From Euglena gracilis (taxonomy: Eukaryota), in assembly GCA_039621445.1 (NCBI GenBank), contig CP154954.1:48587847-48651846 (forward strand): a stretch of DNA of 64,000 bases, written 5' to 3'. The first letter of the stretch is position 1. Every line of letters starts with the position of its first letter. Shown piece after piece: positions 24,801 to 59,667 of this stretch. The notes under the pieces are model-generated. The model searched no databases. It worked only from the letters and a program-made list of their open reading frames with translations, and was not told where the DNA came from. The position numbers and the translations under genes were made by a program.

Positions 24801-27800
24801 CTTGTTTCACCGGTTTTGTCATCTTCGAGCAGAGTCATACATCAAGGCCGACCCTCGGGTGCAGAGCGGCCTTTGAAGAGTGCTCGGGGGATAATTTGCA
24901 GACGAAATCAGTGTATTACCTCTCATTTTTGTCCAGCTCTCTTTGCCCCTGCCGCCTCCGGATGCGGCAAGACAATGAGATGGAGTGCGCGGTTTGTGGG
25001 CGACCAAATCTGAGACTCTTGTGCCCCCCCACAAAGCACCACCAGCCAAAAGTCAGTAAAGCAGAGAGGAGCCTTCGCCTGACGGTGGACTCTGATTCGG
25101 AGGACGACAACTCCAGCTCCCCCGGGCCCCGTCAGCGGGACTTCAGCCTCACGATAAAGGACGACAGCGAGGCGGTGCTGGGGGGCCTGTGCCGCACCGG
25201 AGTGGCATTTGGCATTCCGAGCTCTGCGTCAGAGGTGCTCAGGTTTGTTGTGGCCCTCCTGGGCCACCCCGACAGTGGTGCGAGTGGTGTGAGCCGGGTT
25301 TTGTAATTCCCTCATTGGAAACCTACTTTTAGCCGCCCTGCGTTCTTAATCAGCACCATAATTCCAGATTCTGCGTGCCTCCCTCCTGTTCCGATTCGTA
25401 GGGACGGGTGGAGACGCGTGGTCCATACCTAGCCATCCTTGGCCACACTGGCCATAGGCGTTGAACTTGCCCAGGGCGGCGGTGCGGTGCAGCCCGCAAT
25501 GCAATGGAACTCAAGCCAGTGCCCATCTTCAGCCACAGCCCCACGATGACCTCTGCGGACCATACAACGTCGCTGGCGGTCCTTGAATGTTTATGAAGCG
25601 CCGGTTTGGACTCCAGCATTGACCTCCCACGAAGTCGACCCCTTCTCCCGCCCACGTCTTACGAACCCTGGGGACGTGATGCAACAGGGGGCCACGTTGC
25701 GGTGTGAACCGTTTGTTGTGGAGTCGCGACCCCCCCCCCCCGGGCGGAAATGACTCACGCGCGACCCAAAGAGGCCCTCCCCTTCCCAATCCAGCTCACT
25801 GTATGTCGGAGACTCGTTTGTCTCCCAGCCCACGGTCCGGTCCACCACGTCGTTCAAGGGCGGCCGGCAGCAAGGCGACAGTCCACTCGCTCTCCTGGCT
25901 GCCGGGACTGGCCCTCGCCGCGGCAAAGGTCGTTGGTAACCCGATCTCGGGGGCAATGCTTCCCGGTGGCACTCCGCCAAAGGGGCTGTCCGGGGGCTCC
26001 ACGCCCCAACAGCGCATTTGAAGGTCATTCATCGTGGCAAGCGTAGAGACATCCCAGGTCCGGGCACAGCGACCCCTTGGCCAGGCCTTGCACTGATGGG
26101 GCCCAACCCTGCTTCTGCCAGCACCCCCCACCCTTGTCCAGCAACAATCTCCCTGTCAGATGTGATCGTTTTTGAAAGCGATGTCGGTTCCACAAGTAAT
26201 GGGGCTATGTGTTGTGTGAATTAATTTGGCTTTTTCGAAAGGGGAAAAAATGCCTAAAAAAACAGTGAAAGTTTGATAAATAAAATGCCAAAAAGGGGAG
26301 GGAAAATAGTACCAAAGAAATGAGTTGATGATGTCCTAAGTTTTCTGAAGGCGGTTAGACGTTGTACAACGCGTGGCCAGCGTGGCCGAAATTAGCCAAA
26401 AAGGCGAAAGACAGCCCAAAAAAAATGGCCATTTTGCCCCCCCCCCGGTCTAGCGATCCCGCCCACCCCTGGTCAGAACTAAATTTTGGTGGTCGACAGA
26501 CAAGGGAGGGGGAGGTCCCTTCCAAGCATTGAAAAATGCTGCGGGACGATGGGGAAGGAACGAACGGCCGGGGACGCCAACGCGTCAGAGGCGGCCCGTG
26601 CCCCCCCCCCCCGTTGGGTTTCCCGGGGGCGCAGGGCGCGCCTTCCATGCCCCGGGCCCCGGCCTGCAGCCAGCGGGGCGGCCCCGCGGCACGTCTCCTT
26701 CCACCTCCTGCCCCCACGGCTCGGCGCGCTGCTGGATGCCCCGCCCGGCAGCCGCGGGCAGGGGGTCACTGAAGCCCGAGTGAACCCCGTCCCCCCAGGC
26801 AGCCACCCAGCCAGCAGACTTTTTGCAGCCTCAGCCCATTGCACCTCAACATTCCTTATTTTATTTTGTTATTATTACACTGCCGCCGCCGGAAGTGCCA
26901 AAAAAAATGTGACGGAAATGTAAAAAATGATCGAAATCGGGCTGGCCAGCCCGAATTTGCAGCTAAAAAATAAACTTTTTTTTGCAGGATTGGCAGTTTT
27001 GGGGGCATTTTTGCAGTTTTGATTCTTCAGTACGTGTTGCAACCCCGACCCTGGGTCAGGCCCACTTCCACTAGGGGCCCATGGGGATGGGGAGGGTGAG
27101 CCAGCAAAATTTTCCAGCCTCCCGACTGACCCCCCCCCCGGGGGGGGGAAGGGTCGCTAAGCGACGCCCTGACCTTGGGACGTCCCCCGGCGTGACCCCC
27201 GCCGACCTGCCTCCCCGGCCCCCGCTGGCCCCGCCCCCGCCCCCACCCGGCACGGGGCCCAGCACCGCCACCACCGCCACAACAGCCACGACGGCCAGCA
27301 CCGCCATCACCATCGCCACCACGGGCACCGCGACGAGCAGCGCCGGCAGCAGCCGCCCCACCTCCAGCCCCGCCCATGCGATGGCCCGGCCCGGGACCCC
27401 CCCCCCCACCGACCGTCGTCCAACCAGTGGTTGGCGCGCTGTGGCCACCGCCGCCCCATCGCATGGCCCCATCCCGGGCGGGGACCTGCTGGCGGGCCTG
27501 CCGAAGGCCACGCTGCCCCTCCCGCCCGTCCCGCCCTCCCGCAGAGGTCCAGCGGAGGTTGCCGCGCTGCGCTGCGGGTTGCGGAGACCTGGCAACCCAC
27601 CCCCCACCCGTCACTCACCCCCTCGGAGGTGGCCCACCGGCCGCCGTCCAGGGCGGGACGCCAGGGACGGGTCACTTGACGCTGAACGAGTTCACGCGGT
27701 CCCCGGTCTCCCTGTCGCCCCTCAGCACCGCGTTCCCGTCGCCGTGCAAGTGGCCCCAGCCGTACGACGGCTCCAACAGCCCGCGACAGATCCGCCGCCC

Positions 27801-59300: not shown

Positions 59301-59667
59301 GCCGCCTGAAGGGTGGATGAGCGGTAATGGGTTTTTTGCTTTTTGGAGGCACAAAAAAATGGGTAAAAATGGGTCAGAGTGGGCTGCCAGGGCAAATTTT
59401 GGGTTAAAAAAAAAACGAAATTTTGCATAGTTGGCAGTTTTTTGCACTTTTTGCAGTTTCGATTTTTGGAACCTGTTCGACCCCAGGTCAGGCCCAATCA
59501 CAACCGCCCTGGAACCCCAATGGAGAGGGGGGGGGGGGGCAGTCAGCAGCCTTCTCCAGCCAGCCCAGGTTTTCCAGCCTCTCAGCTTGACCTCCCCCTG
59601 GTGGTGGGTCGTTAAGCGACGCCCTGCCCTGGGCTGCCTGCAGCCCCTGCCGGTGTGCGGCATTTAG
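56351..59667 (+). CDS. CCCH (C-x8-C-x5-C-x3-H, TIS11/TTP-type) zinc-finger RNA-binding protein, multi-exon
   Basis: Spliced finger [27 protein letters not shown] (intron 57407-57618). ATG 56351; exons 56351-56382, 56715-~56860, ~57250-57406, 57619-~57720, ~58275-58490, ~59120-59190, 59632-59667 (TAG). Middle boundaries uncertain. Confidence 0.85.
57932..58215. mobile_element. MITE family A copy (hAT-like), intronic
   Basis: CAGGCTTGTGCTT...TAAGCACAAGCATG; flanks CATGCAAC / CATGCAAA (7/8). Confidence 0.85.
58893..58981. repeat. (AT)n microsatellite
   Basis: Direct reading. Confidence 0.95.
59191..59631 (+). mobile_element. Intron that is itself a TIR element (family C, introner-like)
   Basis: Perfect 13-bp TIR CAGGGCGTCGCTT (59194-59206) / AAGCGACGCCCTG (59614-59626); flanking 8-mers CCCCGAGC / CCCTGGGC. 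Confidence 0.8.

Follow-up and report, generated by a model that had tools for sequence, protein, structure and literature searches.

Do the nonconventional introns of euglenids descend from transposons? [quoted passage not shown] In the accessible parts of later papers, to which our statements on cited work refer throughout, this origin was still a hypothesis in 2018 (PMC6221363) and 2024 (PMC11282704, PMC11170887), and either a hypothesis or 'unclear' in 2025 (PMC12501133, PMC12621601). A stretch of 64,000 nt from Euglena gracilis (GenBank assembly GCA_039621445.1, contig CP154954.1, positions 48,587,847 to 48,651,846 of the forward strand; hereafter the window, in whose positions all coordinates are given) raises the question in concrete form. 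It contains three introns in two genes, here called A, B, and C (Table 1), which an original prediction from the sequence alone had described as copies of one terminal-inverted-repeat element. We found that the three introns are related by descent, are missing from the mature RNA with junctions exactly as predicted, and are flanked by decayed 8-bp duplications. They are very likely diverged copies of a non-autonomous DNA transposon (a MITE), inserted into exons and removed together with one copy of the 8-bp duplication.

The kinship of the three introns is clearest at their ends. Introns A, B, and C share the termini CAGGGCGTCGCTT...AAGCGACGCCCTG, and the terminal inverted repeat of this family (family 1) reads CAGGGCGTCGCTTA.CGACC. 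A motif scan of the window placed the 13-mer CAGGGCGTCGCTT exactly at 27159-27171 (- strand), 59194-59206 (+ strand), and 59614-59626 (- strand), with one mismatch at 39004 (+ strand), and with three mismatches at 26759 (+ strand) and 39132 (- strand). In intron B, one of the two repeat arms has an indel, and the outer CAG and CTG lie at 39004 and 39145. The similarity reaches far beyond the terminal 6 nt. Introns A and C aligned collinearly over 284 nt (blastn, 64.1% identity, E = 7e-20), and 250 of the 407 aligned columns (61%) of their global MAFFT alignment were identical. Intron B matched the 3' ~120 nt of intron C (blastn, 127 nt, 65.4% identity, E = 4e-7 to 1.5e-6) and scored E = 2.6e-5 against an nhmmer profile built from A and C. 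The shared internal blocks that the original prediction had listed are visible in the A/C alignment, and its perfect 13-bp repeat in intron C was confirmed at 13 of 13 positions. As controls, the A+C profile was run on the reversed window (best E = 0.15) and on five locally shuffled windows (best E = 0.38–5.6, with one shuffle giving no match), so the similarity of A and C is more than compositional. Given that the 13-mer is exact at three of six termini while the interiors are just 61–64% identical, the family-1 ends have been kept beyond the remainder of the element. Introns A, B, and C thus share common descent, and within the window family 1 amounts to three copies in two genes.

It is extremely unlikely that the three introns have no common ancestor and came to resemble each other by convergence, driven by the splicing code (CAG, a G+C-rich stem, CTG) and by the C-run/G-run low-complexity composition of introns in this genome. 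C-run/G-run palindromes and CCAGCC motifs do recur at many unrelated sites of the window. The 13-mer at up to three mismatches is also near chance, with 29 occurrences against 20.3 expected, a number reached by 3 of 100 shuffles; this total is unremarkable, and the signal of the 13-mer is in its exact and one-mismatch sites. Convergence, however, does not account for the collinear alignment of A with C or for the control values of the profile, and an identical 13-mer at three of six ends goes beyond what the splicing code requires, namely CAG/CTG and some pairing (PMC12501133).

RNA evidence came from three raw RNA-seq runs and one contig set aligned on window positions 20301-40300, for which 15 of 135 joints were listed. 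Reading frames did not chain across the exons, a sign that there are probably more introns than these 15 joints show. The removal of intron B was exact, with a joint from 39000 to 39151 in X22 (1 read), in X24 (5 reads with 4 starts), and in an X15 contig of 2947 nt that was spliced. For intron A, a piece of the X15 contig (record 1, 2947 nt) began at exactly 27177, and on the shorter side of the preceding joint, from 25882 to 26684, there were 72 letters. These correspond to 26684-26755, so that the contig runs through this 72-nt piece, resumes at 27177, and omits 26756-27176. Intron C had been the doubtful case beforehand because only 11 codons lie downstream of it; its border can be slid 1 nt leftward. 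Here the evidence came from P0004, a protein of 209 residues with the source name eukprot:EG_transcript_18345, which was obtained by a protein search with the open reading frame (ORF) of the CCCH gene that holds intron C; it was found at 'shorter' lengths only, with none at 'near' or 'longer'. Exact 5-residue words of P0004 chained collinearly across eight + strand exons, and the protein mapped exactly to 59098-59190 (...PLPAIGFAP), then to 59632-59664, followed by TAG. Since this mapping runs exactly across 59190/59632, the transcript lacks intron C, with its junction at the codon boundary that had been predicted. The X15 set held 0.41 of the sampled words of 59076-59900, compared to 0.408 expected if C was spliced out and the remainder was exon, and this was not counted as evidence. 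Precise removal at the predicted junctions was thus borne out by RNA for A and B and by a transcript-derived protein for C.

The best-supported of the listed RNA joints, from 24770 to 30950 (6179 nt), links two poly-C runs and was treated as an artefact. The poly-C runs at 24734-24774, 30925-30969, and 17776-17870 attract RNA reads with loose poly-C/poly-G tails, and such reads explain this false joint.

The borders of the three introns correspond to a known splicing code. As defined in knock-in experiments, the Euglena code places a 3-nt spacer before CAG and a 5-nt (to 6-nt) spacer after CTG, with a stem between CAG and CTG and a purine opening the next exon (PMC12501133). None of the introns A (GG..TT), B (GG..GA), or C (AG..TG) has GT/GC-AG borders. 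In all three, CAG begins at intron position +4 and CTG ends at -6, as had been predicted for the terminal inverted repeats, and the first downstream exon base is G, as it also is in introns 33099-33201 and 56383-56714. The terminal stem covers 12 positions with 2 mismatches in A and 13 of 13 positions in C, with spacers of 3 and 5 nt in both. Every sequence feature of the published code is therefore present in A, B, and C, and their borders are of the same type as those of the euglenid nonconventional introns described previously (PMC12501133, PMC3935182, PMC4770533), with CAG at +4 to +6, CTG at -8 to -6, a stem, 3/5-nt spacers, and a purine. The spacer lengths recur in other introns as well. 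Among 19 verified non-GT-AG introns, the best terminal stem had a spacer sum of 8 in nine, and the mean stem score peaked at a spacer sum of 8 (5.1, compared to at most 3.2 elsewhere). On inspection, at least three of the five introns scoring best at k = 6 turned out to have the same stem, made longer by a single chance pair. A two-strand duplex of the intron ends alone had an energy of -27 to -30 kcal/mol.

The elements inside the introns are flanked by direct repeats of 8 bp. The flanking 8-mers matched at 5 of 8 positions for A (GCCGCGGG/ACCTTGGG), at 5 of 8 for B (GGCCGGGC/GGCGAGAC), and at 6 of 8 for C (CCCCGAGC/CCCTGGGC, P = 0.008), which gave 16 of 24 positions for the three introns (joint P = 4e-4, against 8-mers of the local surroundings). 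For the five elements that are verified introns, 30 of 40 positions matched (P = 1.5e-8), with k = 8 as the best offset. Across eight elements of the window, 53 of 64 flank positions matched at k = 8, compared to fractions of 0.19–0.39 at k = 2–7 and 9–10. An 8-bp target-site duplication, now decayed, is thus present beside A, B, and C. Together with the kinship of the introns and their exact removal from RNA, the duplications support the transposon origin that the original prediction had put forward. None of the three outcomes named there as refuting it was observed; for the third, ancient introns at positions conserved in distant relatives, nothing pointed that way, although no orthologues were compared.

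The first 3 and last 5 bases of the introns vary by copy (GGG/GGC/AGC and ACCTT/GGCGA/CCCTG, respectively) and resemble the local exon flanks, which favours insertion at the DNA level over an intron copied through RNA. In the latter scenario, an excised circular intron would reverse-splice into another transcript and then be copied back into the genome. Excised nonconventional introns have indeed been described as full-length circular RNAs (PMC11282704, PMC12501133), and the orientation of all family-1 and family-2 copies with the genes is what an RNA route predicts. An RNA copy, however, would take along its own terminal bases, the first 3 nt and the last 5 nt, and these bases instead differ between copies and match the local flanks as an 8-bp repeat. 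Moreover, related elements with intact 8-bp duplications are nested in other introns (37504-37765 and 57932-58215), where splicing of their own is needless. We therefore regard RNA spread as very unlikely. With respect to orientation, 3 of 3 family-1 and 3 of 3 family-2 copies (6/6) lie in the direction of the + strand genes, and the other A+C profile matches below E = 1e-3 were also best on the + strand; there may be an orientation bias relative to transcription.

Short direct repeats at an intron have also been read in another way. A recently gained nonconventional intron in gapC of Euglena agilis has 8-nt direct repeats at its junctions, which were attributed to double-strand-break repair (PMC4770533). 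If A, B, and C had arisen by such repair with filler DNA, a staggered break or microhomology would be the source of the 8-nt repeats. Such an origin would leave unexplained the recurrence of the same inverted-repeat ends and interior at three sites, as well as repeats of exactly 8 bp across unrelated MITE families of the window, and we consider it highly improbable for these introns.

With insertion of a MITE as the preferred reading, the steps can be put together as follows. A MITE would insert into a coding exon and create an 8-bp target-site duplication. In the pre-mRNA the two repeat arms would pair, and the nonconventional-intron machinery would cut 3 nt upstream of CAG and 5 nt downstream of CTG. 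As 3 and 5 add up to 8, the published code would excise the element and exactly one copy of the duplication. Of the two copies, the exon would retain 5 nt from the start of the left one and 3 nt from the end of the right one. The mRNA would in this way regain its pre-insertion sequence, and the insertion could be tolerated as a new intron. We infer that the transposase was of the hAT type and that its duplication and the code's spacers are matched in length.

Table 1. Introns and MITEs of the window discussed in the text.
Feature	Coordinates	Strand	Description
Intron A	26756..27176	+	421 nt; spacer GGG, family-1 element 26759-27171, spacer ACCTT
Intron B	39001..39150	+	150 nt, in frame, stop-free; short family-1 derivative 39004-39145
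Intron C	59191..59631	+	441 nt; family-1 element 59194-59626 with perfect 13-bp inverted repeat; 11 codons upstream of the CCCH-gene stop
103-nt nonconventional intron	33099..33201	+	95-bp element 33107-33201 plus 8 nt; verified by RNA
First coding-sequence intron of the CCCH gene	56383..56714	+	332 nt, canonical register; element 56386-56709 plus 8 nt
Family-2 MITE	37504..37765	+	Ends CAGGCTTGTGCTTA...TAAGCACAAGCATG; nested in verified nonconventional intron 37170-37948
Family-2 MITE	45504..45789	+	Between the RNA-covered part of the IP3-receptor-like gene and the pore exon
Family-2 MITE	57932..58215	+	Within a CCCH-gene intron, between exons ending at 57726 and starting near 58368
468-bp MITE	22288..22755	+	Ends CATACATCTCT[C/T]TAAGG, unlike family 1; perfect inverted repeat
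Nonconventional intron	37170..37948	+	779 nt; ends CAGGGTGCCCC...GGGGCGGCCTG; spacers 3+5; joint from 37169 to 37949

Two further introns of the window consist of an element plus 8 nt (Table 1). The 95-bp element in the 103-nt intron has the ends CAGGCTTCTC...GAAGCGTG and flanks that match at 7 of 8 positions (CCCACGAG/CCCACGAA). Its joint from 33098 to 33202 was supported by 3 reads of X21, 1 read of X24, and an X15 contig; 7 letters fit either side of this joint, and in the canonical 3/5 register the intron is 33104-33206. The first coding-sequence intron of the CCCH gene contains an element of 324 bp with the ends CAGGCTG...CAGCCTG, a stem spacer sum of 8, and flanks matching at 7 of 8 positions (GCCCCGGG/ACCCCGGG). 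This intron was placed by P0004, of which residues 1-12 fall on 56351-56386 and residues 11-45 on 56713-56817.

Other MITEs of the window have sharper duplications. The three family-2 copies have duplications matching at 8 of 8 (CTCCCATC/CTCCCATC, 37504-37765), 7 of 8 (CTTCCTCA/CTTCCTCG, 45504-45789), and 7 of 8 positions (CATGCAAC/CATGCAAA, 57932-58215). The 37504 copy is 87% identical to the 57932 copy, and the 45504 copy is 82–85% identical to the other two. By hand count, 13 of 20 terminal bases are equal between family-2 and family-1 ends, including GCTTA.CGACC. The 468-bp MITE has a perfect duplication (GTTGGGCA/GTTGGGCA, 8/8). The four MITEs of the window, with duplications of 8/8, 8/8, 7/8, and 7/8, are younger than A, B, and C. 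RNA depth over 22288-22755 was 5–9x in raw reads, compared to ~0.3–1x nearby, and contig depth was ~2258, from which the family of this MITE is probably high-copy. Despite its unlike ends, its interior (22457-22737) matched the A+C nhmmer profile with E = 1e-15, so that the MITE families of the window look mosaic in sequence, with a common interior and different ends. The A+C profile also found two distant relatives that are verified introns, namely 29689-30067, which overlaps an nhmmer match of E = 3e-3, and 37170-37948, whose interior matched at 37206-37597 (E = 2.2e-6, model positions 53-428).

The 5' end of the family-2 copy at 45504-45789 is CGGGC, that is, CGG in place of CAG, and its upstream flank is G+C-rich and could be an exon. 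According to the accessible text of a 2025 paper, the CGG variant is spliceable when it is paired with CCG or CTG. The verified 167-nt nonconventional intron 35045-35211 has a 3' end that, on the opposite strand (CAGGGCCGTGCTAGGTCGGG), resembles the family-2 5' end, and it may represent what remains of a family-2-like element; its spacer sum is 9 rather than 8. The verified GT..AG intron 34038-34965 has a perfect 11-bp inverted repeat (GTCAGAGGGCG...CGCCCTCTGAC) set in by one base from the 5' border and by three from the 3' border, and it looks like the 'intermediate' type of the literature.

A generic scan for an inverted repeat combined with an 8-bp repeat gave 54 pairs, compared to 5–15 in shuffles. 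Forty of the 54 pairs lay inside a palindromic array at 10205-11729, and the other 14 were near chance; the scan is thus uninformative, and only individually inspected elements count. The palindromic unit GGTGGGGCCGCGGCCGGCCGCGGCCCCACC clusters at 10174-10366 and 11361-11743 with A/T runs between the units; the two clusters lie ~1.1 kb apart, are mutually inverted, and swamp generic inverted-repeat scans. Arrays of (TG)n/(CA)n of 150–220 nt occur in both orientations (4541-4956 and 62658-63124, also 47008-47394 and 53683-53852).

The two host genes had been named as an inositol trisphosphate (IP3) receptor gene for A and B and a CCCH gene for C. The latter was confirmed by a zf-CCCH match (E = 5e-5) and by the Pfam families precomputed for P0004. 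For the former the name is at most likely, as no domain match of its own was obtained for the gene with A and B. An ORF at 50603-51343, on the same strand and ~12 kb downstream, encodes an IP3-receptor pore (12 of 12 PDB matches, E = 1e-6), and an upstream ORF at 8237-9784 had a sub-threshold MIR match. Judged from these domains, a single IP3-receptor-like gene of more than 40 kb is likely to span A, B, the MIR ORF, and the pore exon. Across 30 ORFs of the window, the only Pfam matches were to zf-CCCH and two other CCCH families, MIR, Ion_trans, and a C3HC4 finger.

Several results weigh against reading A, B, and C as transposon copies removed through the nonconventional code. The junction of A was read from contig piece coordinates, its joint lying outside the 15 of 135 joints listed, and that of C is known at the protein level only. 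P0004 differs from the window at ~3 residues elsewhere. The duplications of A and B do not reach significance on their own (P = 0.12 and 0.06). The best-scoring stem had a spacer sum other than 8 in 10 of the 19 non-GT-AG introns, and whole-intron minimum-free-energy folds had no terminal pairs for A and C, with local hairpins prevailing. The scan of the 30 window ORFs against Pfam found no transposase domain. Family 1 has just three copies in the window; these are old (61–65% identity), which argues against a recent burst, and the similarity of B is modest. In addition, when a metagenome collection was scanned with the 21-nt 3' end, no additional copy was detected.

The sole match of that metagenome scan was the 3' end of a bacterial gene, enolase-like by eye, and was set aside as a chance match. 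The differences between P0004 and the window lie in the exons at 58398-58400 and 59092-59097 (for example, L/P at residue 149 and V/P at residue 167), and the source of P0004 may be another allele, a paralogue, or another strain.

The original prediction had also named hAT as the source of the transposase. What stands of this is the fit of the 8-bp duplication and the CAGGG terminus, the two features on which the assignment draws; a transposase was absent from the 30 window ORFs. hAT MITEs (Ac/Ds-like) likewise have an 8-bp duplication, short repeats beginning with CAGGG, and a non-coding interior, but no autonomous partner was found here among the window ORFs. The terminal consensus of hAT inverted repeats is YARNG. 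The family-1 end CAGGG fits this consensus, but the ends of family 2 (CAGGC/CATGC) and of the 22288 MITE (CATAC) do not fit throughout. For hAT elements there is also a precedent of removal from RNA, as Giroux reportedly described in 1994 that Ds was spliced out of maize transcripts (cited in PMC3935182). The removal of Ds is imprecise and is performed by the ordinary spliceosome.

The same mechanism might have worked with a transposase other than hAT, from Merlin, which makes 8–9-bp duplications, or another superfamily with 8-bp duplications, such as P. Two Merlin families with 8-bp duplications have been described in E. gracilis, the same or a closely related organism (PMC8101967), and no hAT transposase was seen among the 30 window ORFs. 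Merlin inverted repeats, however, begin with 5'-GG (PMC8101967), in contrast to CA(G/T)G in the elements here, and the DDE_Tnp_IS1595 domain of Merlin was not seen in the window. Along with the hAT-like terminus of family 1, this makes a non-hAT transposase rather unlikely.

Introners (introner-like elements), the transposon-derived intron families of Micromonas, Aureococcus, fungi, and dinoflagellates, are likewise mobile elements, present in many copies, that insert into exons and are precisely removed by means of a target-site duplication (PMC11282704). Those introners are removed by the spliceosome and have duplications of 3–5 nt in Amoebophrya (PMC11282704), whereas the family described here uses the nonconventional code and an 8-bp duplication and was seen in just three diverged copies. 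Like introners, this family combines inverted repeats with a duplication used in excision. The accessible literature on euglenid nonconventional introns (PMC12501133, PMC3935182, PMC4770533) presents them as singletons whose MITE origin is a hypothesis, whereas here a sequence family of introns lies beside intact MITEs with related ends and 8-bp duplications. In a literature search that excluded subscription papers and supplements, we found no statement that nonconventional introns form MITE families or that their spacers sum to the duplication length. Within the scope of that search the 8-bp rule appears to be new; it sharpens the original interpretation and lends direct support to the MITE hypothesis of 2014.

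The window unites an intron sequence family across two genes, intact relatives with 8-bp duplications, and verified introns that equal an element plus 8 nt, and it suggests in simple terms why the 3-nt and 5-nt spacers defined by experiment have these lengths. As a tentative extension, which we hold to be slightly on the doubtful side, the nonconventional splicing code could be the imprint of a single superfamily, hAT-like CAG...CTG MITEs, with spacers that sum to the duplication, and most nonconventional introns (~70% of Euglena introns) could have begun as insertions. The question of MITE origin now becomes countable genome-wide. If the extension is true, the excised RNA circle is expected to restore a single copy of the duplication at its junction. 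Nonconventional splicing would in that case amount to a system for the scarless excision of such elements at the RNA level, and the second splicing system of Euglena may have arisen to neutralise one class of transposon.

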